DNA of 64,000 bases from Candidatus Krumholzibacteriia bacterium (GCA_963836185.1 CAWIIQ010000001.1:288001-352000); one strand, 5' to 3'. Shown: positions 3,424-23,809, counted from the stretch's first letter. Notes: generated by a model from the sequence alone, not told the origin. Made by a program: numbers and translations.

Positions 3424-6123
3424 CTACCTCAGAAGGATCATCTTCTTCGTCTGCTCGAACTTTTCTGCTGTCAGCCGGTAGAAATAGACGCCGCTCGCAG
3501 CGGTTCTTCCCGATGAGTCGCTGCCGTTCCATTCCACTGTATGGCTGCCTCCGGATCGGATCCCGTCTGTCAGCGTCGTGACCAGTCTTCCCGTCACATC
3601 GTAGACGTCGATGCGGACGTGCGATCTCTCCGGCAGATAGAAGGCGATCGACGTCGACGGGTTGAACGGGTTCGGAACATTCTGGTAAAGTGTGAGGGGC
3701 ATCGCCGGCGCCTCGATCTCATCACTCTCGAAGAGGATCCTCCGGCCGCCCGATTCCTCTACCTCTATCCGGTAGAGATAGGTCACTCCCGGCTCGCATG
3801 TGCGATCCTTGACCGTAAAAGACATCCCGTCCCTCTCGAGATGAGCATCGTCGATCTCTTCGAAATCCCCCCCGGGATTCTCCGCACGCAGCACATGGAA
3901 CTCGGTCCCGTCGTCAGCCTGGGAGAGGGTCCAGTTGAGCTCTACCCATGAATCGGTCCACGACGCAGACCAGCTCTGCAGCAGGGTACCGACGTATATA
4001 TTCTCGGGCCTGAGCGTGGCAGCCGGCCCCCTGTTCCCATGAACGTCGACTGCGATGAGCTTGAAGAAATCCTGGTCGGCCGGCGTCCAGCCGGCGTCGA
4101 GAAATTCCGTATCGAATATGCTGCCCACGAAGTTCAGTCCGCCGGGAACAAAGTCCTCGGTCGCTCCCTTGTAGACCTCGTATAGCGAGAGGTCGGCCTC
4201 GGTTCCAGCGTCCCAGTACAGGTTCAGCCCGGGAGGTGCGAGGCTCTGGATGCCGCCGAAAGCGACCGGCTGCGCCGGAGACAGGTTGTCGACCGAGTAG
4301 CCGCTGTCGACCGGCGAGTCGAAGTAGAGGATCGAACCCTCCATATGGGCGGTCACGACAAAGTACTGCCACCCTGGATCGGTACCCATCGAGTCGAACA
4401 GGCTCTCAACCATCAGCGCGTACTCTTCAGCCTGACGTGCGGGGATATAGCCGACCAGTTCCCACGCCTCCCCGGCAGCGGTCTCGAGGTGTCTTACCGC
4501 GCCCACGCTGAGATCCTCGACCGGGCCGGCCTCCGCGAGCGGCATGGCCCGGCTGCTCGCTGCCATCTGGCCGGGTAGGAGCCTCCACGCCGAATAGCTG
4601 TCTATCCAGGCCTCGGGGAACGTATCGGCCTCGCTGGCCATCCACCTGAGCATCAGCCTTCCGCCCTGGTCGTTAGGTACGTCACTGACCGATGAGATCA
4701 CGGGCGGTTCGCTCAGAGGCCCGATCCCGCCATACATATTGATGCGGGAACCGAAGAGATCGAAATCGGCATTCCTGTCATCGGACCAGACGCAGTACGC
4801 GCCGCCCAGCAGGTCACTGGTCATATAAGTTCTGTCGACATCGCTGTCCTCGAAACCCGAAGTGACCTTCCGTCCCCCCGCGGTCCAGCGTGGGGTCCCG
4901 TCGTGGTCGATCTTCTGGGCATACAGTGCCATTGTGCCCTGGTCCGTGTCCCGGAAGTCATACATCAATACAATGGCGCCGCCTTCGCCGTCGGGGCATA
5001 TACATTCAGAGTAGGTCGGCCAGGAGCCGGTGCTGGCCAGGATGCCTCCGGGCCACCACAGGATGTCGCCGTCAGCATCGATTCTCTGTACAGTGGTGTG
5101 GATATCCATCCCTGCACCAAGGGTTCCGGCCACAAATCCGATTATCGCTCCCCCCTCGGTGTCTGTAGTTATTGTAGGTGGCCCTAATGTCGGTATTCCG
5201 TCAGCTATAGCCACTCCATCGGCAGCCCAGTCGCCATTGCCCCACTGATCGACCTTCTGGACGAACACTTCCTCGTCACCCGTCCTGTAATCCGTCCATA
5301 CGATTATGGCCCCCCCCGCACCGTCAGCAACCAGGGCGATGTTTCCCGGCGACGAAGGATCGGTGCACATGGCCGCTCCGGTCGCGCCCCAGGCGACGGC
5401 GCCGGTCAGATCGAACTTCTGGGCGTAGAGGTCGTTATTGCCGGACCTGTTGTCCCGGTAAGCAAGGATGAATTCTCCGCCGCCCGCCGGGATGACCGCC
5501 TGGGGGAACTGGGAGTCGGTGAGATTCGTCATCGGCTGCCCCGTTGCGCCCCAGAGACGATCGCCGTTTTCATCGATGCGCTGTCCTATTATGTCGTATG
5601 AACCGAAACGGTAATCGGACCACAGGACGATCGCTCCGCCGGCGCCGTCGGAGGTCATCAGGAGACTTTGCAGGCCGTTTATCTCGGTGAAGAGGCTGTC
5701 TCCGTTAACGGCCCAGAGAGGATTGCCATCGGGATCAAGCCTCTGGGCGAAGATCGCCATAGCCGGGCCCCGCTCATCCTGCCAGGCGACAATTGCTCCG
5801 CCCGCGCCGTCGGGCACGACCATCTGATAGCTCTGCGTACCAGTGGCGGTACAGACAGGGACGCCTCCCGCCGTCCAGGGAAGGTTCCCATCGGGATCGA
5901 GTCTTGCCGCGTAGATGTCAGGCGGGCCTCCTGTCCGCTCGTCCCTCCATGCTACGATGATCCCTCCGTCTCCGATCGTCTCCGTGATTGCCATATCATA
6001 CTCATCACCGGGCACTCCGGTTATCAGCACCCCGTTCTCCTCCCATACGGCATGGAGCGCGGTGATTCCTGTGATGACGGCGAAAAGCACAAGGACTGAA
6101 GCGACATTTGCGCGGCGTGTCAT
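3424..6123 (-). CDS. Secreted beta-propeller repeat protein with T9SS type-A/FlgD-Ig C-terminal domain (paralog 1)
   Basis: Start reassigned to MTRRANV (AAGGGAGG SD). Repeats 'DG.GGAI..W.D.R...D.YAQ..D..G...W'; 'DSGYSVDNL.P'; C-terminus 'QNVPNPFNP...SGVYFYRL...KKMILLR'. Confidence 0.85.
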   Translation of the reverse strand: MTRRANVASVLVLFAVITGITALHAVWEENGVLITGVPGDEYDMAITETIGDGGIIVAWRDERTGGPPDIYAARLDPDGNLPWTAGGVPVCTATGTQSYQMVVPDGAGGAIVAWQDERGPAMAIFAQRLDPDGNPLWAVNGDSLFTEINGLQSLLMTSDGAGGAIVLWSDYRFGSYDIIGQRIDENGDRLWGATGQPMTNLTDSQFPQAVIPAGGGEFILAYRDNRSGNNDLYAQKFDLTGAVAWGATGAAMCTDPSSPGNIALVADGAGGAIIVWTDYRTGDEEVFVQKVDQWGNGDWAADGVAIADGIPTLGPPTITTDTEGGAIIGFVAGTLGAGMDIHTTVQRIDADGDILWWPGGILASTGSWPTYSECICPDGEGGAIVLMYDFRDTDQGTMALYAQKIDHDGTPRWTAGGRKVTSGFEDSDVDRTYMTSDLLGGAYCVWSDDRNADFDLFGSRINMYGGIGPLSEPPVISSVSDVPNDQGGRLMLRWMASEADTFPEAWIDSYSAWRLLPGQMAASSRAMPLAEAGPVEDLSVGAVRHLETAAGEAWELVGYIPARQAEEYALMVESLFDSMGTDPGWQYFVVTAHMEGSILYFDSPVDSGYSVDNLSPAQPVAFGGIQSLAPPGLNLYWDAGTEADLSLYEVYKGATEDFVPGGLNFVGSIFDTEFLDAGWTPADQDFFKLIAVDVHGNRGPAATLRPENIYVGTLLQSWSASWTDSWVELNWTLSQADDGTEFHVLRAENPGGDFEEIDDAHLERDGMSFTVKDRTCEPGVTYLYRIEVEESGGRRILFESDEIEAPAMPLTLYQNVPNPFNPSTSIAFYLPERSHVRIDVYDVTGRLVTTLTDGIRSGGSHTVEWNGSDSSGRTAASGVYFYRLTAEKFEQTKKMILLR

Positions 6124-6279: not shown

Positions 6280-9200
6280 ATGCACTCGCCGACCGATCAT
6301 AAGATAAAAAGGGCCCGTTCCCTGTGGCTCTCTCTGGCCGCCTTCTGCATACCGGCGGTCATCGCCGTCAGCATATTGCCCGGCAGGGGCGGCACGAGCA
6401 GTTCGCCTCCATCCGCTGCACCTGACTCCCTTTGCAGGATTCTTCCCGCCGGCCCGCGCCCGGTGAGGAACTGGCCTATAAATCTGAGCAACTCGATTAT
6501 ATTTGCTCCCGCAGTGGCTGATATCGACGGCGACGGCACAGATGAGCTTGCCGTCGGGGTCAAGGACTGCCGCGTCTATCTTCTCGAAGGAAACGGGAGG
6601 ATCCTTCCCGGCTGGCCCTGTGAGACGGCTGCATTCATATCCCGCGGTACGATGATGGAAGATATCGATGGGGACGGAGAGTACGAGATCGCGGCCGGAA
6701 GCAACGATGGTCTGCTGCATATGTGGCGCGAGGACGGCAGCATCGTGGAAGGATGGCCGGTCGATCTGGGAGGCAGCGCCGCATCCGCTCCCATACCGAT
6801 TCGCTCTGAGCGGCTGGAGGGCACATCGATACTTGTCTGCAACTCGCCCGGAACCGTTCATCTTCTCTCACCCGCGGGGATCGATCGCGATGGGTGGCCG
6901 AAGAGACTGCCGCAGAGTATTCAAGCGACCCATTCTGACAGGCGGCCCGCCTGGGCAGTGGACCTTGACGGCGACGGCACGGCAGAAGTCATCTGCCAGA
7001 CAACAAGACCTCCAGTGATTCACGCCTGGTACCTCAGCGGCGATGAATATCCCGGATTTCCGATCGAACTGGGAGAAGACCCGGTCATCGGCATGGCGGT
7101 CAATGATAATTCAGATCCCGGGCGTATCGCCTCTCTGACAGCATTCGAGGTCTTCCTCCGGAACCTCGATAACGGGAATGTGATATCTCTTTCCCCGGTG
7201 AGTGAGAAGGATGTTTTCTTCGCCGGCCCCTGGTTTGTTTCGTCTGGAGAGGGGGGAGACGCGAAACCGGATCTCATCCTCGCTTCGACAATGAAGGGCC
7301 GGGTATATATGTGGGATCTCGATGGCCGGCTGAAGACGGGCTGGCCGGTCGACACAGACGGATTTATCTACGGTCTCCGCGAGGATCAGGAAAACCACGA
7401 GATCTTCGGGCCGCCGATAATGGCCGATGTAGATGGAGATGGCAGGAACGAGATAATACTGGGAAGCCGAGACCACCACCTTTACTGCTTCGAGCTCGAT
7501 GGTGCTCCTGTCCCGGGCTGGCCGGTCGTCCTTGACGATTTCATCTTCAACGCGTTGACCCTCGCGCAGCTGGACGGCAAAGGTGCTGAAGAACTGGTCG
7601 TCGGCCAGGCCGGAGAGACCCTCTTCGCCTGGCATCTTGATCCGTTCCGGCCTGTAAGAGAGGCGGGCGGCAGCCCTGAACCCCGCGCGTATTCAGAATG
7701 GCCGCCTGTATACTATACTGTTGCTCTTTTTATCCTGCTCATGCTGCTTCTCCTTATGCATCTGCTCAGGATGGAACTGACAGGTCATTTCGATTCCACG
7801 GGAAGAAGACTGCGTGGTGCGCTGATCTTCTTCAGCCTCTTCCTGGTGATCAGGGCGCTCTTCTTCGCCGGCGATCTCTACAGGTACAGGACTGTGATCG
7901 ACAGGCTCGAAAAAGCTGAGACAGCTGTGAGGACAAAACTTGAAACCGAACGTGTCGAGGCGCAGAAGCTGACGGATAAGCTCGCTGTAGATCTCCGGGC
8001 CTGCAGGCCTGAGAATCTCCTGGACCCGCACAGGGCCCTGCGCTGCCTCGAGCGGCTTGCTGACCGCAATCGTCTCGAATACAGGTTCAGCGGGATTCTT
8101 ATGGCTGATCGTTCGGGGCGTGTCATCAGGGGAGTGGGCCTGGGAAGAGGATGGTTCCATCTTTCAGAGATGGGACTGGAGGAAGGCGGCGCCGAAGATC
8201 CCGTGCTCCTCGGTGATATCCCCGTCTTTGCGACCGAGAGCGGCGTCGGCCTCTCCGGCGGACAGGATACATTGCGGGTTTTTCTTCTTACGAGTCTGCT
8301 CAACAAGGTCCCGAACTCGTTGGCTGACGCGACGGGATTTTCCGCCCATATCCTTGTCGACGGGATGCCGATGGCCTGGGGAGGCGCGGGTCCGCGGCCG
8401 TTCAGGAGCCTTCGCCCCTGGCTCGGCATCGTTCAGCCTTCGAGAGAGATGTCGATCGCTCGTTCACAGGACCAGCATGAGGTTACGGTCCTTCTCGCAA
8501 AAGAGGATTTCGACCGGCCTTTCTCGCAGTGGCTCGACCTCATGGCGGTCCTGATCATGCCCTGCATCTACCTTTTTGTCGCGAGATGGCAGGGGAGCAA
8601 GGGCAAGGTCAGGTTGAAGTACTGGTGGATAATCTCGTTCGCCCTGCTATATGTCATCGCCTCTGTTCTGCTTCATCGAGGCAGACTCGATGCAGGGCCC
8701 GTTCCGGCAGCGGGACGTGTACTCGAGGTGCTGCTGCACATGGCAGGGGTCACCGGAGTCGTTGTCGCGCTGCATCGGATAGTGACCTCGCGCAGGAGCC
8801 GGCGTCTCAATTTCGCCCTGCTGGGATCTTACCTCTTCGTGAGCCTGATACCCCTGACGGTGATAATGATCGTCGGGGGGAATCTCTTTCTCGGCGTTCA
8901 GCGCGGTGTTGTCGAAAAGACGATCGAGGGGCTGGAGAAACGGGCCGACAATATGGTCCTTGCCTATGTAGGAAACATGGGATTCAACAATCTGCTCGGC
9001 AAGGCCGGACCGGAGCTTTTCGAACTTTCCACAGAGACGAGCTGGCTCAACTTTGTCGCGGAGAACCAGTACCTGTTCACCTACGACCTGCCGAGTGCCT
9101 ACATCACACTCTGGGCCAGTGACAGGAATGATCCTGACAGATTCTTCACAGGCTATTCATACACGGCTCCCCGGACCGGGAAGCTCTACTACAAAAGGCC

Positions 9201-10527
9201 AGGCTGGACAAGGGGGCAGAATGTAAAGGGCCTGTTCCTCGACAACGGCACCGCGGTGGTCAGGGCGATTCGGATGTACCGGTTCAGAGAGTATGAGATG
9301 GACCTCGTCAGCCATATCACGATAGACGACAGGATAATCAGCGAGATGGAGGACCGGCTCAGGGTGGTGCCGTTCATGCCCCGCATCCATCTCGAACCGG
9401 CCTGGCTCGAGTCGACGACCGAGAGAAGCAGGCCGGAGGGCTGGTACATCCCGTATGCCAGTGAACTGGTCCTGCAGGCGAGGGGATGGTATTCCGGCAA
9501 ACCCCGCTGGGCCATATACAGGGCGAGCATGTATATACCCGCCGGCAAAGATATGCTCAACGTCCTTGTTCCCCTGATCCTGCTGATCCTTCTTCCTCTC
9601 GGGCTCTCGTTCTGGGGGGCTTACACGACATTCAAGAGGACGGCCAGGCCTCTGACACGCCTGCTGACAGGTATCAGGCGCGTGGGGCAGGGCGACCTCG
9701 AGTACCGACTCGGGGAGTCGGGACAGTCGGAGATAGGGCTCGCGGCCCGCTCGTTCGATACGATGGCGGCGAGTCTAGAGGAGACGATCGATGAGCTCGC
9801 CGCGAAGAAGAAGGTCGAGGAGGTAAGCGAGCTGAAGAGCCACTTCATCTCGATGGTGAGCCACGATCTGAAGACGCCGCTCTCATCGATAAAGGGAGCG
9901 ACCGAGAATATCCTCGAGGAAGTCGCCGGGCCGGTGACGGACCGCCAGCGCCGGTACCTGGAGATGATAATAAAAAGCAGCGGTGACCTTCAGAGGATGA
10001 TCACCGATCTGCTCGATCTGTCCCGTATCGAGAGCGGACGGCTGACACTCGATATAGAGCCGCTCGATATACGGCGCGAGGCGGAGGACCTGCTGCGCTC
10101 AATCGCTCCCCTGCTCGAGAGGGAGGAAATGACCGGTCTGCTGAAAATCACCGCGGAAGAGACGATCGTGCAGGGAGACAGGACGAGAGTATGGCAGATC
10201 CTCAACAATGTCGTCTCGAACGCCATCCGTCATTCGCCCGAGGGAGGGAGTGTCGAGATAAGGATAGATGATATCCAGGTCGATGAGACTGACGGCCGGC
10301 GAATGCTGCGGGTATCGGTCAGAGATGAGGGACCCGGTATCGATGATGAGGATGCGGCGAAGCTGTTCGAACCATTCTTCTACCGGTCGTCGGGAAGGGC
10401 AGGTGCCCACGGTGCCGGGCTAGGCCTCGCTATCGTCAAGCAGCTCGTCGAACTTCATGGTGGGTCAGTATCGCTGAAAAGCGCCATGGCAGGTGGCGCT
10501 GTCTTCTCCTTCACCCTTCCTGTCTGA
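6280..10527 (+). CDS. Sensor histidine kinase with extracytoplasmic FG-GAP/VCBS propeller, multiple TM segments, HAMP, HisKA and HATPase
   Basis: DIDGDG/DLDGDG/DVDGDG and GWP repeats (aa ~60-455); several hydrophobic TMs; HAMP ('RPLTRL...GDL..RL...EIGLAARSFDTM'); H-box SHDLKTPL; N-box NVVSNAIRHS; DEGPG; GAGLGL. Confidence 0.92.
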   Translation: MHSPTDHKIKRARSLWLSLAAFCIPAVIAVSILPGRGGTSSSPPSAAPDSLCRILPAGPRPVRNWPINLSNSIIFAPAVADIDGDGTDELAVGVKDCRVYLLEGNGRILPGWPCETAAFISRGTMMEDIDGDGEYEIAAGSNDGLLHMWREDGSIVEGWPVDLGGSAASAPIPIRSERLEGTSILVCNSPGTVHLLSPAGIDRDGWPKRLPQSIQATHSDRRPAWAVDLDGDGTAEVICQTTRPPVIHAWYLSGDEYPGFPIELGEDPVIGMAVNDNSDPGRIASLTAFEVFLRNLDNGNVISLSPVSEKDVFFAGPWFVSSGEGGDAKPDLILASTMKGRVYMWDLDGRLKTGWPVDTDGFIYGLREDQENHEIFGPPIMADVDGDGRNEIILGSRDHHLYCFELDGAPVPGWPVVLDDFIFNALTLAQLDGKGAEELVVGQAGETLFAWHLDPFRPVREAGGSPEPRAYSEWPPVYYTVALFILLMLLLLMHLLRMELTGHFDSTGRRLRGALIFFSLFLVIRALFFAGDLYRYRTVIDRLEKAETAVRTKLETERVEAQKLTDKLAVDLRACRPENLLDPHRALRCLERLADRNRLEYRFSGILMADRSGRVIRGVGLGRGWFHLSEMGLEEGGAEDPVLLGDIPVFATESGVGLSGGQDTLRVFLLTSLLNKVPNSLADATGFSAHILVDGMPMAWGGAGPRPFRSLRPWLGIVQPSREMSIARSQDQHEVTVLLAKEDFDRPFSQWLDLMAVLIMPCIYLFVARWQGSKGKVRLKYWWIISFALLYVIASVLLHRGRLDAGPVPAAGRVLEVLLHMAGVTGVVVALHRIVTSRRSRRLNFALLGSYLFVSLIPLTVIMIVGGNLFLGVQRGVVEKTIEGLEKRADNMVLAYVGNMGFNNLLGKAGPELFELSTETSWLNFVAENQYLFTYDLPSAYITLWASDRNDPDRFFTGYSYTAPRTGKLYYKRPGWTRGQNVKGLFLDNGTAVVRAIRMYRFREYEMDLVSHITIDDRIISEMEDRLRVVPFMPRIHLEPAWLESTTERSRPEGWYIPYASELVLQARGWYSGKPRWAIYRASMYIPAGKDMLNVLVPLILLILLPLGLSFWGAYTTFKRTARPLTRLLTGIRRVGQGDLEYRLGESGQSEIGLAARSFDTMAASLEETIDELAAKKKVEEVSELKSHFISMVSHDLKTPLSSIKGATENILEEVAGPVTDRQRRYLEMIIKSSGDLQRMITDLLDLSRIESGRLTLDIEPLDIRREAEDLLRSIAPLLEREEMTGLLKITAEETIVQGDRTRVWQILNNVVSNAIRHSPEGGSVEIRIDDIQVDETDGRRMLRVSVRDEGPGIDDEDAAKLFEPFFYRSSGRAGAHGAGLGLAIVKQLVELHGGSVSLKSAMAGGAVFSFTLPV

Positions 10528-10584
10528 ACAGGGCTTTTCCCTAAAAAAAGGTGTACATCCGGGTTGCGATAGAGGCATAATCGC

Positions 10585-10722
10585 TGCGCATAAATTGCGC
10601 GGCAAGTGGATGGAAGATTGCCGTAAAATCGCGATACGTGAAATACCTTGGATGACAACTGACTTATTGACAGCATGTTATAAAAGCAGTCCGGCTGATG
10701 TCGTGATGGTATGCTATGTGCA
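10585..10722 (+). promoter_or_regulatory. Putative enhancer site plus sigma54 promoter of the response regulator
   Basis: TGCGCA-TAAAT-TGCGCG at 10585-10601; TGGTATGCTATGTGCA at 10707-10722 (GG-N10-GC). Confidence 0.65.
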
Positions 10723-10774
10723 GTATATGTGAGTTCGATTCCATGGAAATCATGACGGAACGGATGTCAGCAAG

Positions 10775-12148
10775 ATGCCTGAAAAAGGGATAAACGGAGC
10801 GGCACGGATACTCGTCGTCGAGGACGATGAGAGTCTGCGGATGATCATAACCGACCGCCTCGCCGATATGGGATACCGGGTAAGCCAGGCCTCGAGTCTC
10901 AGGGAGGCTTTCGAGGAACTCGACAGGGAGAGCTGCCAGCTTGTTCTGCTCGATATTTTCCTGCCCGATCAGAGCGGGCTCGAGGGGCTGAAAGAGATGC
11001 GCGGCATATTCCCGTCAATGCCGGTGCTCGTCATGACCGCTCACGGAACGATCGACATGGCGGTCGAGGCTATGAGGGAAGGCGCCTACGAGTTCGTCAC
11101 AAAGCCGCTCGATTTCAAGCGCCTCGGGGTCCTCGTTCAGAGGGCGATCGAGAGCTTCCAGCTCAGGACAGAGGTAGATTATCTCAGGCGCGCGGCCGAT
11201 GAGCCTTTTACCCTGATAGTCGGCGAGAGGACAGGGTTGAGAAGCGTCATGGAACTTGTCCGGCAGGTTGCTGATTCCGACTCGACAGTACTTCTGCGTG
11301 GAGAGACCGGGACGGGGAAGGAAGTGGTCGCCAGAAAGATATGCAGGCTCTCCAAAAGGGGGAAAAAGCCGTTTGTCGTGGCGAACAGCGCGGCGATTCC
11401 GAGGGACCTGATGGAGAGCGAGATGTTCGGCCACGTCAAGGGTTCCTTCACCGGCGCTATCGCAGACAGGGCCGGGGTCTTTGAGACTGCCGGCGACGGT
11501 ACCCTTCTACTCGACGAGATAGGCGATCTCGATTACAACCTGCAGGCAAAGATCCTCAGGGTCCTCGAGGATGGTTCATTCAGGAGGATCGGGGCGAAGG
11601 CGCCGCAGAGCAGCCGGGCCCGGATACTTGCTTCGACCCATCAGAACCTTGAAAGACTGATCGAGGAGAAACGTTTCAGGGAGGACCTTTACTATCGTCT
11701 CAATGTATTTCCGATCACGATCCCACCTCTGCGCCACAGGCGTGAGGACATCCCCGATTTCGCGAAATTCTTCCTGCAGCTCGCTACGAGGGGCGGCCGT
11801 GGCGGATTGACGGAGATCAGCGATGACGCGATCGACGTGCTGGTCGATTATCCATGGCCGGGAAATGTGCGCGAGTTGAAGAACCTGATGGAACGGCTCG
11901 CGATTACGATGTCGGGGCGCACGATAAAAGCCGATGATGCCAGGACGTATCTCGGGCAGGCGAGGATCGCAAAGCCGGAGATCGTGGTGCGGCCCATGGT
12001 AGAACTAGAAAAACAGGCGATCATCGAGGCGCTCGACAAGTACAACGGCAATCGTACCATAGCCGCCGCAGCTCTCGGAATCAGCAGGCGCACACTTCAG
12101 AACAAGCTCAAGTCGTACGGCATGCCCGATTACGGAAACACCGGTTGA
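10775..12148 (+). CDS. sigma54-dependent NtrC/AtoC-family response regulator (REC-AAA+-Fis HTH)
   Basis: Receiver 'VVEDD...LLDIFLP'; Walker A GETGTGKE; GSFTGA loop; Walker B LLDEIG; RFREDLYYRL; WPGNVREL; HTH 'AAAALGISRRTLQNKL'. Confidence 0.95.
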   Translation: MPEKGINGAARILVVEDDESLRMIITDRLADMGYRVSQASSLREAFEELDRESCQLVLLDIFLPDQSGLEGLKEMRGIFPSMPVLVMTAHGTIDMAVEAMREGAYEFVTKPLDFKRLGVLVQRAIESFQLRTEVDYLRRAADEPFTLIVGERTGLRSVMELVRQVADSDSTVLLRGETGTGKEVVARKICRLSKRGKKPFVVANSAAIPRDLMESEMFGHVKGSFTGAIADRAGVFETAGDGTLLLDEIGDLDYNLQAKILRVLEDGSFRRIGAKAPQSSRARILASTHQNLERLIEEKRFREDLYYRLNVFPITIPPLRHRREDIPDFAKFFLQLATRGGRGGLTEISDDAIDVLVDYPWPGNVRELKNLMERLAITMSGRTIKADDARTYLGQARIAKPEIVVRPMVELEKQAIIEALDKYNGNRTIAAAALGISRRTLQNKLKSYGMPDYGNTG

Positions 12149-12180
12149 CATATATCACAGCTCTGTAAACAGGCGTTAAC

Positions 12181-12218
12181 TGCGCAGATGTTGCGCATTA
12201 GTGCGTATATTCTGCGCA
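12181..12218. promoter_or_regulatory. Tandem palindromic enhancer-binding-protein sites (UAS)
   Basis: TGCGCA-GATGT-TGCGCA (12181-97) and TGCGTA-TATTC-TGCGCA (12202-18), 21 bp apart. Confidence 0.7.
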
Positions 12219-12252
12219 CCATTTCACCCCTCCAGCCGGATGCCCATATAGT

Positions 12253-12265
12253 TAATACATTGATA
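12253..12265 (-). promoter_or_regulatory. IHF binding site
   Basis: Minus strand TATCAATGTATTA is an exact WATCAA-N4-TTR match, located between the UAS and the sigma54 promoter. Confidence 0.65.
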
Positions 12266-12303
12266 ACAAATCGGTTAACATCTTGTGAAACTCTTGCTGT
12301 TTT

Positions 12304-12319
12304 TGGAACGAAGGATGCA
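12304..12319 (+). promoter_or_regulatory. sigma54 (-24/-12) promoter
   Basis: TGGAACGAAGGATGCA: GG at 12305-06, GC at 12317-18, exact N10 spacing. Confidence 0.65.
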
Positions 12320-12329
12320 TATACAGTAT

Positions 12330-12458
12330 TGCCAGCAAAGTGCGAACCGGGGGGGATACTTGGTTTGCAATATACTCTTGCTAAGATAAGCGGAAGAGGT
12401 GAGCACCGGGGTTGTTGTGGAATGGCCGGGTACCTGCAATGGGACCCGGCCTTTCTTT
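12330..12458 (+). ncRNA. Putative sigma54-dependent small RNA (~130 nt)
   Basis: Lies between the sigma54 promoter and an intrinsic terminator with no credible ORF. Hairpins GCGAACCGG/TTGGTTTGC (loop GGGGGATAC) and CTCTTGCT/AGC-GG-AAGAG. Confidence 0.55.
12424..12458 (+). terminator. Rho-independent terminator
   Basis: GGCCGGGT-ACCTGCAATGGG-ACCCGGCC followed by TTTCTTT; U-tract only on the + strand. Confidence 0.75.
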
Positions 12459-12507
12459 GTCTCATCGCCGGCATTGCCGGTCGACCCGTCATCTGATCAT
12501 TTCACGA

Positions 12508-14934
12508 TCACCTCAACAGGATCATCTTCTTCGTCTCTTCGAAATCACCCGCACGCAGCCTGTAGAAGTAGACGCCGCTGGCCGTGTCTGTCCCGTTCCG
12601 GTCCTTTCCGTTCCATGCGGCGGCGTACTTACCGGCAGACCTCGATCCGTCGATAAGTGTCGCGACGAGTCTTCCCGCCGCATCGTAAATGCTCAGCCTC
12701 ACATGTCCCTTCTTTTTGAGACCGAACGTGATAATCGTGTTCGGGTTGAACGGGTTGGGATAGTTTTGCGCGAGGAATGTCGCTTCGGGCACGGGCATCG
12801 GGTCGCCGCCGGTGACATCGGAAGGTCCTGTCATGGCGAAAGGTCCCTCGTTGCCATGGATATCGACGGCATTGATCTTGTACCAGTACCCTGCTTCCCA
12901 TGTCCAGTCATCGTCGAACAGTTCCTCTTCTTTGGTCGATGTAAGATAGTTTCCCGGTGCGGGGACGAAATCGCTCGAGGTCCCCCGGTAGATGCTGTAG
13001 GCGATGACATCTTCTTCTTCGTTCGGATCCCAGGTCAGCGCCATTCCTTCCGGCGAAAATGACTGTGTGCCGGCCAGGCCTGTCGGCGCGAGTGGGGCGA
13101 GGTTGTCGACCGAGTACCCACTGTCCGGATCTGATATCCAGAAGAGATAAGGATCGGCAGTGTGCGCTATCACCTGGAAATAATGCAGGTCCCAGGCAAC
13201 GGCGGTTGAGTCGAAAAGGGTCTCGGCTGCGTAGGAATACTGCTCCAGGTAATAGGCGGGAGCGATGCCGACAAGCTGCCAGTAGAATTCGTCGTCGTAA
13301 AGTGTCGAAGATCTGAGCACGGGGCGGTCGATCTCCCCCGGATTAAGCCCGGACAGTTCAGCCGGGCTGCCGAGAAGATGCGCTCCTTTCTCGATCATAG
13401 TCAGCGCGGGCGGCAGTTCGATGGCTCGCCATATAGTGTATTCAGTTATCATGTGTGCGAGTACATCGGCTGGTGACGCGTCCCAGGCTACGACTACGCG
13501 GCCGCCTTCATCACCCGGAACATCGGTCACTGAGTGGATGGCGGGCGGCCGGTTCGCGGTCCTTCCGGATGCATCTATCTGCTGGATGTAGAGATCTTCA
13601 TTGCCGTTTCTTTCATCCACCCACAGTATTATCGCACCGCCTCCGCCGTCACCGGTCAGCTTCGGAATCTTCTGATTCCCGACCGACGTGCATACAGCGA
13701 CACCGTTCATGGTCCAGCGAACAGTTCCCGAAGCGTCGATCCGCTGAGCATAGATGTCATCATCGCTGTTTCTCTCATCGTGCCATGTCAGGATGGCTCC
13801 CCCGGCATCGTCCGATATGATCTGGATGGTATTCTGGGTGCCTGGATCCGTACATACGGGGACTCCATCGGCGGTCCACAGGGACGTTCCCGAAGAATTG
13901 ATCCGCTGTACATAAACGTCATTGTTCCCGTTTCGGTAGTCCTGCCATGTCACGATCGCTCCGTTTGCTCCATCGGAAACGAGATATGTGATCGACTGGT
14001 GAAGTGGTGCTCCGGACACCAGGACTCCATCAGTTGCCCAGAGCACGGTGCCTGCCGCATCGAATCGTTGAGCATAGACGTCATAGGTATAGGAACGATA
14101 ATCATGCCAAACGACGATCGCTCCATCGACTCCATCCGATATTACCTGAGGGGAGAACTGGTTATGATTTGCCGTGCATACGGGGACGCCGGCAGCTCCC
14201 CACTGGATGGTCCCGTTGAAATCGATCCGTTGAATATAGAGATCCTGGTACGATGCCGGGCGCTGGTCCTCCCAGACGATAAATGCACCTCCAGCGCCAT
14301 CAGGCCCTATCTGTATTTTAAACTGTCCCGAGGGGTCAGAGCATATTTGAACGCCGTTCAATGTCCATTGAGGTGCACCGGATTCGTTTAACCTCTGTGC
14401 ATACGCTCTGTAATATCCGTTTCTCCAGTCATGCCATACTATGATCGCCCCGCCCTGCGTATCTGAGATGATCAAAGGCGTTTTCTGGTTCCCGGTGATA
14501 GTACACACAGGAAGCCCGACAGCGGTCCACAGCATGTTACCCTGGCCGTCGATTCTCTGGGCGTATATGTCGATATCACTGTTCCTGGTGTCCTCCCATG
14601 TGACGATCGCTCCGTCAACTCCATCCCTGATGACCTGGGGGTAATTCTGGCTCAGGCTCGCTGTGCTGAGTATGATGCCGTCAGCCGTCCACAGGGCATT
14701 TCCCCCGGCATCGATCCGTTGGATATATACATCGTTGTTGACCCCGGCCCTTTCGTCGTACCAGACAGCGAACGCTCCCGCTGCCCCGTCAGGGGCCACT
14801 TGCTGGGTATTCTGGTCATTGATCGCTGTACAGACCGGTGTTCCCTGGTCGGTCCAGAATGCATGCAGCGACGGCATGGCGACCAGTGATGAAAAGAGAA
14901 TGACAAGGAACAGAGTCCTGGATGTCCTGCTCAT
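12508..14934 (-). CDS. Secreted beta-propeller repeat protein with T9SS/FlgD-Ig CTD (paralog 2)
   Basis: Start MSRTSR (GAAGGAGG SD); same repeats, DVPGDEGG/DSGYSVDNLAP module and 'QNYPNPFNP...KKMILLR'. Confidence 0.88.
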   Translation of the reverse strand: MSRTSRTLFLVILFSSLVAMPSLHAFWTDQGTPVCTAINDQNTQQVAPDGAAGAFAVWYDERAGVNNDVYIQRIDAGGNALWTADGIILSTASLSQNYPQVIRDGVDGAIVTWEDTRNSDIDIYAQRIDGQGNMLWTAVGLPVCTITGNQKTPLIISDTQGGAIIVWHDWRNGYYRAYAQRLNESGAPQWTLNGVQICSDPSGQFKIQIGPDGAGGAFIVWEDQRPASYQDLYIQRIDFNGTIQWGAAGVPVCTANHNQFSPQVISDGVDGAIVVWHDYRSYTYDVYAQRFDAAGTVLWATDGVLVSGAPLHQSITYLVSDGANGAIVTWQDYRNGNNDVYVQRINSSGTSLWTADGVPVCTDPGTQNTIQIISDDAGGAILTWHDERNSDDDIYAQRIDASGTVRWTMNGVAVCTSVGNQKIPKLTGDGGGGAIILWVDERNGNEDLYIQQIDASGRTANRPPAIHSVTDVPGDEGGRVVVAWDASPADVLAHMITEYTIWRAIELPPALTMIEKGAHLLGSPAELSGLNPGEIDRPVLRSSTLYDDEFYWQLVGIAPAYYLEQYSYAAETLFDSTAVAWDLHYFQVIAHTADPYLFWISDPDSGYSVDNLAPLAPTGLAGTQSFSPEGMALTWDPNEEEDVIAYSIYRGTSSDFVPAPGNYLTSTKEEELFDDDWTWEAGYWYKINAVDIHGNEGPFAMTGPSDVTGGDPMPVPEATFLAQNYPNPFNPNTIITFGLKKKGHVRLSIYDAAGRLVATLIDGSRSAGKYAAAWNGKDRNGTDTASGVYFYRLRAGDFEETKKMILLR

Positions 14935-21376: not shown

Positions 21377-23809
21377 TTATCTCAGCAGGATCATCTTCTT
21401 TGTCTCCTTGAACTCTCCAGCATTCAACATGTAGAAATAGACTCCGCTCGCTGCGGAAGATCCGTCAGCGCTTTTGCCTTTCCACTCAGTGGTATATCTA
21501 CCTGCGGATCTTGATTCATCGATAAGAGTAGTTACGAGTCGTCCGGCAGCGTCATATATCCGGAGCGATACATGCCCGGACACTTTTAATCCGAACCCGA
21601 TGGTCGTAACTGGGTTGAACGGGTTGGGGAAGTTCTGCGCAAGGAATGTAGCGTCGGGCAGCGGCATCGGATCGTCGCCGGTGACCATGTCCGGCCCGAT
21701 GACGGAGAAGATGCTTTCGTTGCCGTGTATGTCGACCGCCGCGATCTTGTACCAGTACCCGGCATCCCACGACCAGTAACCATCGACAGAGAAGGTATCG
21801 GGGGTCGAGGCCACGAAGTTCCCCGGGCCCGGCTCGAACGTCTCGCTCGTCCCTCGGTAGATCTTGTATCCTGCGAGGTCAGCCTCGCTGTTCGGATCCC
21901 ACGTCAGCTGCAGGCCGTTCGGCGTGAAGAGCTGCTCGCCCGCGAGTCCGAGCGGAGCGGCGGGGGCGAGGTTGTCGACAGAGTATCCGCTGTCGGGGAG
22001 CGATTCCCAGAAGACCGTGCGGTCACCGGTGTGCGCTATCACCTGGAAGTAGTGCCAGGCGCTGTGCACACCGGTAGAATCGAAGAGTGTCGAGATGACA
22101 TCTGCGTAATTTTCCTGCGCGTATGCCTCATCGTACGAGACGAGCTGCCAGTAGTAGGGCTCGCCTGCAAGCATCCCGCGGCGGATTACATCTGTGCCGA
22201 GCCTGGAATCGAGGTCACCGGCGCTGGTCAGCACGGTCGCGCCGTTTGTCTCGAACATCATCGCGGCAGGCTGGTCTATCGCCCGCCAGACCGAGTACTC
22301 GGAGATCGCATATCCGGGCCACGCGTCGAGATAGCTCGCGTCCCACGCTACACTGACGCCGCCTCCCTGGTCACCCGGTATGTCGATGATCGAGGTTATC
22401 TCGGGCGCGGGGAATCCCCAGTTGCCGGTCCTGTCCATCCGGCCGGCGTATACGTCGTAATTAGAGTTGCGGTAGTCTTTCCACGCCGCGATCGCGCCTC
22501 CGCGGCCGTCATGTGTGATGTCTATTTCGCTCTGAAGTTTCGTAGCTTCAGTGAGCTTCACCCCGTCCGTCCCCCAGAGGAGGGAGCCGGAGGCGTCGAC
22601 GCGCTGCATAAAGATATCGCCGTCGTACCGCCCGTCTTGCCAGGCCGTGATTGCGCCGCCATCGCCGTCCGTGGCAACCGCCGGGTTGTAGCAGCCTGCC
22701 GATGTGCCGCACAGGAGGACGCCGTCGGCGGTCCACGCCACGGTGCCATTCATCTCTACCTTCTGAGCGTAAGCTTTATTCGTCCCGCTCCGGCCGTCCT
22801 CCCAGACAACCATGAAGCCACCCTGTGGATCGGCGCAGACATCCAGGTCTTCTGCAGAGTCCGCGTTGGCGCCATAGAGCACGACGCCTCCGGCGGTCCA
22901 TCCCTCGTTGCCGCTGACGTCGAACGACTGCGCGTATATCGAGTAATGGCTCATGTTGCGGCCATCCCGCCAGCAGGCAATGAACCGGTAATTTCTGTCC
23001 ATGATCAGCTGGACGTTTCTCTGGGAGTCAGTGGCGTTATTGAGGACTATTCCGTTGACGGGCCATCCCCGTGAGCCGGACAACGAGTATCGGTGCCCGT
23101 AGATGTCGGAATAGGTCCCGCTGCCCCTGTAGTCCGCCCATGCAAAATATACGTAGTTGCTCAGGACGTCCACGGTCACATCCGGGTCGATCTGGTTGTA
23201 TGCCGATTCAGTGCAGACCGGCTCTCCGTTGGCCGTCCAGAGTGCGGTGCCGCCGGCGTCGATGCGCTGGGCGTATATGTCGTATGTCGCGCCCATGACG
23301 CCGGCATAGCTTTCCCAGACTATAACGGCGCCTCCGGACCCGTCGCAGGCGATTTCCGCGTCTCCCTGGGTGCCTGTCGCTGTAGTCACCGCGACTCCCC
23401 ACGCCGTCCACAGTTCGTTCCCGTCGGCGTCGAGACGCTGCGCGTATATGTCAGTGTCGCTTCCGCGGCTGTCCTGCCAGGCGACGATCAGGCCGCCCTC
23501 GCCGTCCTGTTCTATCACCGGCCACGTCTGGTTGCTGCCGGAAGGTGTGATCTGGATACCTCCCGGGGTCCACATCTCCTGGCCGTATCCGTTGAGGCGC
23601 TGGGCGAATATCTCGCCGAGATTCGAGTCAGTCCAGACGACGAACGCCCCGCCCTCCCCGTCGTTGATGACGAGAGGCATAGACTGGGTACCTGATGCGG
23701 TCGAGACGGGGTTGCCGTCCTCGATCCACTGAGCAGCTGCGCCTGTCGTAAGAAGAACCGAGAAAAGTAAAAGTAAAGTGATCGATGCGAAGACCCTGGA
23801 GAACATCAT
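21377..23809 (-). CDS. Secreted beta-propeller repeat protein with T9SS/FlgD-Ig CTD (paralog 3)
   Basis: Start MMFSRV (GGAAGGAG SD); same architecture as paralogs 1-2. Confidence 0.88.
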   Translation of the reverse strand: MMFSRVFASITLLLLFSVLLTTGAAAQWIEDGNPVSTASGTQSMPLVINDGEGGAFVVWTDSNLGEIFAQRLNGYGQEMWTPGGIQITPSGSNQTWPVIEQDGEGGLIVAWQDSRGSDTDIYAQRLDADGNELWTAWGVAVTTATGTQGDAEIACDGSGGAVIVWESYAGVMGATYDIYAQRIDAGGTALWTANGEPVCTESAYNQIDPDVTVDVLSNYVYFAWADYRGSGTYSDIYGHRYSLSGSRGWPVNGIVLNNATDSQRNVQLIMDRNYRFIACWRDGRNMSHYSIYAQSFDVSGNEGWTAGGVVLYGANADSAEDLDVCADPQGGFMVVWEDGRSGTNKAYAQKVEMNGTVAWTADGVLLCGTSAGCYNPAVATDGDGGAITAWQDGRYDGDIFMQRVDASGSLLWGTDGVKLTEATKLQSEIDITHDGRGGAIAAWKDYRNSNYDVYAGRMDRTGNWGFPAPEITSIIDIPGDQGGGVSVAWDASYLDAWPGYAISEYSVWRAIDQPAAMMFETNGATVLTSAGDLDSRLGTDVIRRGMLAGEPYYWQLVSYDEAYAQENYADVISTLFDSTGVHSAWHYFQVIAHTGDRTVFWESLPDSGYSVDNLAPAAPLGLAGEQLFTPNGLQLTWDPNSEADLAGYKIYRGTSETFEPGPGNFVASTPDTFSVDGYWSWDAGYWYKIAAVDIHGNESIFSVIGPDMVTGDDPMPLPDATFLAQNFPNPFNPVTTIGFGLKVSGHVSLRIYDAAGRLVTTLIDESRSAGRYTTEWKGKSADGSSAASGVYFYMLNAGEFKETKKMILLR
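21459..21595 (-). repeat. 137-bp near-identical CTD cassette, copy 1
   Basis: 6 mismatches versus the 50434-50570 copy by manual alignment. Confidence 0.85.

Follow-up and report, generated by a model that had tools for sequence, protein, structure and literature searches.

A conserved kinase, sigma-54 regulator and small RNA cassette of Candidatus Krumholzibacteria and its predicted RNA partner

Described systems and the Krumholzibacteria cassette

In Myxococcus xanthus, the kinase PxrK and the NtrC-like sigma-54 regulator PxrR are associated with the small RNA (sRNA) Pxr, and an enhancer and a sigma-54 promoter occupy the gap ahead of the RNA. Pxr has three stem-loops, the first loop being functional, and its host is devoid of Hfq (PMC5684412, PMC10217877). 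A similar gene order was found in a 64,000-nt stretch (hereafter, the window) of the genome of a Candidatus Krumholzibacteriia bacterium (G000; 3.5 Mb, 92.5% complete), in which the gene for a sensor histidine kinase and that for a sigma-54 regulator are followed by an enhancer and a non-coding RNA of ~130 nt (12329..12458), designated below as the cassette RNA and predicted to be a sponge of a second sRNA, RNA-B. Positions without a prefix are those of the window, on its plus strand unless stated otherwise; the prefix C1: denotes contig C1 of the G000 genome. The likeness to Pxr comprises the succession of kinase, sigma-54 regulator, enhancer and sRNA, the three stem-loops and the fact that Hfq was not found in G000. 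There are also differences: the kinase is here a beta-propeller protein with multiple membrane segments, the phylum is another one, the cassette RNA matches no Rfam family at E up to 5, and its predicted partner is another sRNA.

The action of the cassette RNA would resemble that of RosA on RoxS. RosA of Bacillus subtilis, a sponge of RoxS and FsrA, and RsaI of Staphylococcus aureus, which is of like kind, are described as stand-alone RNAs, several G-rich regions of which pair with the C-rich anti-Shine-Dalgarno (anti-SD) regions of another sRNA, Hfq being unneeded; RosA is transcribed by sigma-A and repressed by CcpA (PMC8216469). To judge from its predicted promoter and terminator, the cassette RNA is likewise a stand-alone gene, and its conserved G-rich regions are complementary to a C-rich region of RNA-B. 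Unlike RosA, the cassette RNA is predicted to be made under the control of sigma-54 and of a two-component system dedicated to it; no sequence relation with RosA or RsaI was found, and the host phylum is Gram-negative and uncultured.

Other described systems share single features with the locus. In the CbrAB/CrcZ system of Pseudomonas, a two-component system with a sigma-54 activator drives an adjacent decoy RNA. CrcZ sequesters Hfq/Crc, whereas Hfq was not found in G000. CbrB is reported to control at least 61 genes, whereas the genome studied here contains two strict activator sites only (PMC6296734; see also PMC8871633 on CbrAB/CrcZ). Sigma-54 response regulators also drive sRNAs in the GlrK/GlrR-GlmY and LuxO-Qrr systems (PMC4152352, PMC7073468). 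No match was obtained between the cassette RNA and the Rfam models of Pxr, CrcZ, Qrr or GlmY. GlmY resembles the cassette RNA in acting on a second sRNA, but as a mimic that decoys the protein RapZ and not as an antisense partner; Qrr RNAs need Hfq. A difference from protein sponges of the CsrB/RsmY type is that CsrA/RsmA went undetected in all 11 cassette genomes searched (it was found in 21/61 overall).

Neither the two RNAs nor the kinase were found in the titles and abstract beginnings of the literature on Krumholzibacteria small or non-coding RNA, sigma-54 sponges and FG-GAP kinases (few subscription journals, supplements excluded); RNA-B could still feature in the large supplements of RNA-motif surveys. 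A preliminary description of the window had proposed an analogous, apparently undescribed cassette. The kinase, the sigma-54 activator and the RNA, their conserved enhancer geometry and the lack of an Rfam family bear this out, whereas the predicted RNA partner had been missed.

The cassette RNA

Orthologues of the regulator were sought in 208 genomes of the phylum and detected in 17 of them (60-79% identity), always adjoining the kinase. Downstream of the regulator, the tandem activator site occurs in 16/17 genomes and a terminated RNA-like stretch in 15/17; the conservation of sites, sigma-54 box and terminated ~130-nt stretch that would be expected of a genuine cassette was observed in 15/17. 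The genes flanking the cassette vary among genomes, and in most genomes the RNA stretch sits between convergent genes. Exceptions include G081, with an assembly gap across the sigma-54 box, and G071, which has no site, promoter or RNA downstream of the regulator. A pattern scan of metagenomes yielded two copies, a new one that carries a 14-nt insertion and another that is identical to the copy of G083. Copies were sorted into the groups g1, g2 and g3, plus G038 and the pair G176/G177.

The start of the cassette RNA was placed from its promoter. Folding of 12330-12460 gives two hairpins, hairpin 1 at 12341-12369 and hairpin 2 at 12375-12398, followed by a GC terminator that ends in a U tail (12424..12458), in agreement with the two hairpins and terminator noted earlier. 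The fold has a z-score of -2.3, with 5/200 shuffles equally good. In the terminator, 4/16 pairs are changed on both sides; a simple terminator scan did not list it. Covariation, which the preliminary description had called for, was found as both-side changes in 6/35 and 8/38 pairs of small, related sets, as compared with 0/500 shuffles. Copies in all groups share position, terminator and the motif C(C/U)GG(A/G)GGG(G/A)A. Shuffling the g2 and G038 copies seldom produces this motif (4-8/2000), but its G176 variant is at chance level (600/2000 shuffles). In the order-level sample of 52 genomes, strong matches of the RNA models (E<1e-20) were single-copy and confined to regulator-bearing genomes (7/52 and 5/52). 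An Rfam search of the window and 11 loci returned no match at gathering score, a lone sucA match (E 1.9) being at chance level, and the cassette RNA is without any family match. The cassette RNA is almost certainly a real, stand-alone RNA. The copies of G176 and G177 (L040 and L039) are longer, ~190 nt, carry GCCGGUGGGGG and have no RNA-B complement.

RNA-B and its predicted pairing with the cassette RNA

The search that led to RNA-B did not presuppose it. Exact complements of the cassette RNA seed were collected in G003, G004, G007 and G027, and 57 of the 66 sites were examined. Besides the cassette RNA itself, one non-coding site recurred in all four genomes and in G000, and it lies in RNA-B; the single recurrent coding complement was confined to the two g2 genomes. 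RNA-B is an RNA of ~95 nt (C1:1229324-1229418). It has a sigma-70-type promoter of its own, along with a closing helix and a U tail, and was found in 42/52 genomes of the order and in a few outside. It was found in 0/23 and 0/12 genomes of two outer families (those of G176/G177 and of G065/G071), with a model that recovered four copies withheld from its training. Its structure is supported by covariation in 16/28 pairs, and its loops UGGCGAGA and GGA(C/U)AUCCCCUCCG are both nearly invariant, the latter being invariant in 45 sequences. RNA-B exposes CAUCCCC beside UCCGG, an arrangement that is anti-start- and anti-SD-like. Pattern searches of viral contigs gave 0 matches, and an Rfam search of the RNA-B region, including the neighbouring RNA-A, gave none.

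Three blocks of the cassette RNA are complementary to RNA-B. Site 1, ACCGG(A/G)GGGGAU (12346..12357), is part of hairpin 1 and matches RNA-B AUCCCCUCCGGU in a predicted loop-loop contact. Site 2, AAGAG-GUGAGCACCGGGG (12394..12411), matches the RNA-B 3' arm in a 13-bp run with two G-U pairs, and most g1 and g3 copies have such a second site. The 5' block UUGCCA (12329..12334) is complementary to RNA-B loop 1 (UGGCGA) over 5-7 bp, a match that is weak alone; it reads UCGCCA in 4/7 close copies, and g1 copies start with U(C/U)GCCA. All three conserved single blocks of g1 therefore map onto RNA-B. In G008, site 1 is present twice.

Each of 13 order-level cassette RNAs was compared with the RNA-B of its own genome, and all 13 pair over 9-16 ungapped bp: most g1 copies reach 12-13 bp, the g2 duplex has 13 bp with a shift of three bases, G038 has 16 bp and G004 has 9 bp. 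The direction in which the duplex extends differs by genus, and most substitutions keep the pairing by wobble, with A/G facing U and C/U facing G. One position covaries between the two RNAs, G038 having CAAG/CUUG where the others have GAG/CUC (A-U versus G-C). Binding energies, including opening costs, range from -7 to -15 kcal/mol in 12/13 pairs, and in 10/13 pairs at most 1/60 shuffles were equally good. The RNA-B complement is missing from the cassette RNAs of G176/G177, where RNA-B was not found.

Several observations weigh against such a pairing or its use as a sponge. The 13 pairs amount to only about four independent lineages because the genomes are related, and models of the two main RNA groups gave no significant cross-detection. 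Whole-molecule cofolding, under a model unable to form loop-loop contacts, yielded a gain of ~0 kcal/mol (within 0.5) in 9/13 pairs and of -3 to -9 in four; the RNA-B hairpin is, however, stable. In G004, site 1 is broken (9 bp, 22/200 shuffles equally good) and site 2 is present, while G007 and G006 are within the shuffle range (7/60 and 4/60). When G000 is taken alone, the cassette RNA is not the top partner: its site 2 ranks third among the intergenic non-self matches, several coding stretches score above it, and its site 1 falls outside the top 25. The core of the match is Shine-Dalgarno (SD)-like, so part of the complementarity would be expected of any SD mimic. RNA-level evidence came from the assembled contigs of one metatranscriptome run, which covered neither the cassette RNA nor RNA-B and is uninformative on both, and target searches revealed no conserved mRNA target of RNA-B. 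With these points taken into account, it is still very probable that the cassette RNA pairs with RNA-B.

Proposed mode of action and alternative readings

In the mechanism that we favour, the kinase would sense a signal, likely extracytoplasmic, and phosphorylate the regulator, which would bind its sites and switch on transcription from two sigma-54 promoters, that of its own gene and that of the ~130-nt RNA; with positive autoregulation, the response would be switch-like. The duplex in the cell would start as a loop-loop kiss, in which the sponge loop GGGGAU meets the loop AUCCCC of RNA-B, and would then lengthen to 12-16 bp, and close relatives of G000 would add site 2 on the RNA-B 3' arm and the 5' block on loop 1. 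RNA-B would repress the translation of mRNAs with G-rich ribosome-binding sites, and its sequestration by the cassette RNA would release them; with RNA-B neutralised, the signal would thus de-repress the RNA-B targets. What the sequence itself shows is the layout of the locus with its conservation, the numbers of activator sites, the RNA structures and the complementarity; transcription, phosphotransfer, regulator binding, the cellular duplex with its direction and the role of RNA-B are inferred. We regard the cassette RNA as probably a signal-induced, neutralising sponge of RNA-B.

The cassette RNA might instead mimic an SD sequence, as a decoy for an SD-binding protein or the ribosome or as an opener of anti-SD leader hairpins, its match with RNA-B being a by-product. 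The seed does resemble strong local SDs, and each copy has 3-7 GGA motifs, one of them a conserved loop motif (GGGGG in G000). Proteins that could take part are also present (KhpB and four RRM proteins), and in this genus an IHF-like gene has a leader hairpin with a GGAGGGA loop. However, this hairpin is genus-limited and also occurs in the cassette-less G001, no conserved mRNA site emerged, and the pairing with RNA-B extends well past the SD core in a lineage-specific manner. As to the known RNA-binding proteins, CsrA went undetected in the 11 cassette genomes mentioned above, and Hfq and ProQ were not found in G000, the only genome searched for them (92.5% complete). Such a mimic is therefore considered unlikely.

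Complementarity has no direction, and the two RNAs could pair with another outcome: RNA-B may buffer the cassette RNA, or the duplex may stabilise, process or activate RNA-B, as opening the RNA-B hairpin could expose other parts of it. Yet in the ~29 genomes of the order with RNA-B but no regulator orthologue, the RNA-B loop is just as invariant, so that RNA-B must serve a separate purpose. The cassette RNA, for its part, covers exactly the exposed loop of RNA-B and conserves little beyond the RNA-B-pairing blocks and the hairpins. An outcome other than neutralisation appears improbable.

The stretch could also be a leftover, either the 3' untranslated region (UTR) of the regulator gene or a leader whose secreted-protein gene has been lost. 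In G065, the cassette sites and box lead directly into a secreted beta-propeller gene that they would drive with no RNA in between, convergent genes flank the stretch in most genomes, and no transcript was seen in the one RNA run. Against this, the unit of site, promoter, RNA and terminator is inverted as a whole in G038, where it faces the regulator with the seed kept. Because of this inversion, the cassette RNA is not a 3' UTR, a possibility that the preliminary description had named as fatal to its proposal. The internal motif is moreover invariant across genera with unrelated downstream genes, the hairpins covary and the spacing is conserved, which together make a leftover very unlikely. 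That the transcript encodes a small peptide can practically be dismissed: an SD-like GGAGG followed by UUG or GUG occurs in 6/16 copies, but the open reading frames (ORFs) concerned share neither start nor length (4 to >25 codons) nor sequence, 10/16 copies including G000 lack them, and indels are out of frame. No SD-led ORF is conserved among the 16 copies, in line with the earlier view that the stretch contains no credible ORF.

The protein of G065 belongs to the family of the secreted protein encoded at 12508-14934 of the window. In the same genome, the kinase and regulator genes abut and the autoregulatory site described below is absent.

Promoters and activator sites

The tandem activator sites ahead of the RNA gene (12181..12218) have a 21-bp period. 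Both had been read as TGCGCA-N5-TGCGCA; this is exact for 12181-12197, and the second copy, at 12202-12218, has one mismatch (TGCGTA-N5-TGCGCA). The proposed IHF site is an exact consensus match on the minus strand (12253..12265), but this exactness is not conserved: the match is degenerate in relatives, with at most one mismatch in 2/9 co-oriented relatives checked, where the stretch is still AT-rich. The sigma-54 -24/-12 box of the RNA gene, TGGAACG-N4-ATGCA (12304..12319), contains the expected GG (12305-06) and GC (12317-18) and is found in relatives. The distance between the first site and this box is 122-123 bp in 13 genomes; for the inverted unit of G038, it is 125 bp. In these 14 genomes, the 122-125 bp spacing falls in the range of sigma-54 enhancers, which lie ~80-150 bp upstream of GG-N10-GC.

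The cassette proposal had overlooked a second enhancer, with its own sigma-54 promoter, in the interval that separates the kinase gene from the regulator gene. The autoregulatory site, TGCGCA-N5-TGCGCG (10585..10601), lies 122 bp ahead of the regulator's sigma-54 box (10707..10721). Site and box were found together in 15/17 orthologue genomes, with a spacing of 122-126 bp in 12 genomes of the same family. The regulator also has a predicted basal promoter of sigma-70 type at 10552..10581, with a -10 box located 3 bp ahead of the autoregulatory site; a GGCATA(A/G)T -10 box occupies a like position in 6/6 close relatives. A sigma-70-type box beside a sigma-54 promoter is reminiscent of glnAp1/glnAp2. 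In the metatranscriptome, a 269-nt contig at 10612-10880 extends across the predicted promoter with the box at 10707 and is uninformative.

The strict site YGCGCA-N5-TGCGCR occurs only twice in the 3.5 Mb of G000, both times in the cassette and each time 122-123 bp upstream of a sigma-54 box. Among 54 sites with one mismatch, a box at the right distance was found only at those of the cassette. Strict sites were confined to the cassette in 4/4 same-genus genomes, and the GC-rich G027 had 8 strict sites versus 13 control matches. Judging from these counts, the cassette RNA is likely the sole output of kinase and regulator besides themselves.

Kinase and regulator

The sensor histidine kinase (6280..10527) is a protein of 1415 amino acids, in which Pfam recognised FG-GAP, HAMP, HisKA and HATPase domains, in keeping with the FG-GAP sensor kinase described earlier. 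An N-terminal hydrophobic segment and an FG-GAP beta-propeller (residues ~50-460) are followed by the membrane part, HAMP, HisKA and HATPase; hydropathy predicts seven more membrane segments, which flank two large loops. The N-terminal domain was modelled with a pLDDT (predicted local distance difference test) of 90.5, and this predicted structure matches beta-propellers. His1195 of the HisKA domain is invariant across 39 aligned homologues. The kinase family comprises 47 clusters, the members with taxon names belonging to Candidatus Krumholzibacteria, and the nearest non-kinase relatives of the propeller are FG-GAP regions that occur in secreted proteins, among which proteases are numerous. 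Scanning named genomes with the kinase gave a single, unrelated match.

The regulator (10775..12148; 457 amino acids) was assigned to the NtrC type, and Pfam indeed recognised REC, a sigma-54 AAA+ domain and a Fis-type helix-turn-helix (HTH_8). Its GAFTGA-type loop reads GSFTGA at residue 223, a variant known to be active. Among the NCBIfam equivalogs shown (NtrC, AtoC, ZraR, GlrR, LuxO and NtrX), it stays below every cut-off, the best score being 414 bits versus 558.6 for ntrC, and it is far under those of GlrR and LuxO. The kinase too is under the cut-off of all named NCBIfam families shown. RpoN is encoded in G000, along with three HU/IHF genes.

Candidate targets and the neighbourhood of RNA-B

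The preliminary description had suggested that the RNA controls the surrounding secreted proteins post-transcriptionally. Direct control was unsupported, as the flanking genes differ among genomes, and the leaders of the 87 G000 secreted proteins with a PNPFN tail showed no excess complementarity to the cassette RNA. An indirect link through RNA-B may exist. SDs reading GGAGGGG are enriched in the PNPFN-tail genes (7/87 versus 34/2746, p 2e-4), a figure that rests on home-made gene calls and on several patterns tried; generic SDs are not enriched. The home-made caller, which provided the gene calls for all script-based statistics, relies on SD strength, and SD statistics are therefore biased. 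Three genes of the window (3424-6123, 12508-14934 and 21377-23806) belong to a 16-copy secreted repeat family, most members of which have a PNPFN/FlgD-type tail.

Other candidates were rejected. The perR/fur-like gene (C1:634204, L250) has a G-rich stretch complementary to RNA-B ~22 nt before its start; this site is present in the same genus only and absent from 10 other genomes. For the start region of the TPR activator gene beside RNA-B, the complementarity to RNA-B lay for the most part between -8 and -13 kcal/mol, which does not surpass that of ordinary starts; it was equally present where RNA-B was not found. Single-genome scans for mRNA targets of the cassette RNA produced no convincing target; the top hit is probably not in an mRNA, as it lies within a predicted asnS promoter spacer. 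The GGAGGGA-loop hairpin in the leader of an IHF-beta-like gene (C1:1611895-1611925, L102) is kept in 7/7 same-genus genomes; as a target of the cassette RNA it was discarded on its limitation to the genus and its presence in G001.

The surroundings of RNA-B have features of their own. A sigma-54-driven RNA of ~145 nt, RNA-A (C1:1229081-1229255, L188:7082-7256; z -4.9), lies just upstream. Its motif AGGUGGGGUCUC is conserved and extends to the outer families, and in this family there is complementarity between the RNA-A 5' part and AACCGAUGCC, the conserved start region of the adjacent TPR activator gene; a search in five genomes revealed no conserved partner for the RNA-A GGUGGGGUCUC motif. 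In G015, a single-contig genome of the family, RNA-B was not found and the TPR activator start region is conserved. Partial tandem duplicates of the RNA-B 3' arm follow directly behind RNA-B in G003 (L143), G005 and G008, and G037 and G198 have a second full copy elsewhere in the genome. An intergenic GAGCACC-C-GGAGGGGAUAU ahead of a hairpin in G003 (L137, G003:C2:26161) is a near-perfect RNA-B complement and possibly another RNA-B partner. Elsewhere on contig C1 of G000, a gene behind an NtrX-like regulator (C1:1225319-1225627) encodes a small acidic protein that is secreted and has a GDADD motif, with a similar gene after the regulator in L012, and a tRNA-Sec is present at C1:1400422.

Significance for the Krumholzibacteria

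A wider, Hfq-free network is conceivable but speculative, in which RNA-B would broadly brake translation at G-rich ribosome-binding sites, a large share of which would belong to secreted surface proteins, the propeller kinase would sense an extracellular substrate and a multi-site, kissing-loop sponge would lift the brake. If so, the promoter that leads to a secreted protein in G065 would represent the same wiring without an RNA relay, the kinase propeller would be kin to those of secreted proteases, and a whole two-component system would serve the sponge.

On comparative grounds, the cassette is real, conserved and apparently undescribed, and it has a specific predicted RNA partner. In the literature searched, RNA regulation is apparently undescribed for the phylum, and no two-component system with an anti-sRNA as its only visible output was found. 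Most RNA sponges have been uncovered by cross-linking or pull-down in model organisms, whereas this pair is predicted from sequence comparison only. It offers a short and cheap in vitro test of chaperone-free RNA-RNA recognition, with a compensatory test built in, and gives a handle on RNA-B, which is nearly invariant across the whole order.

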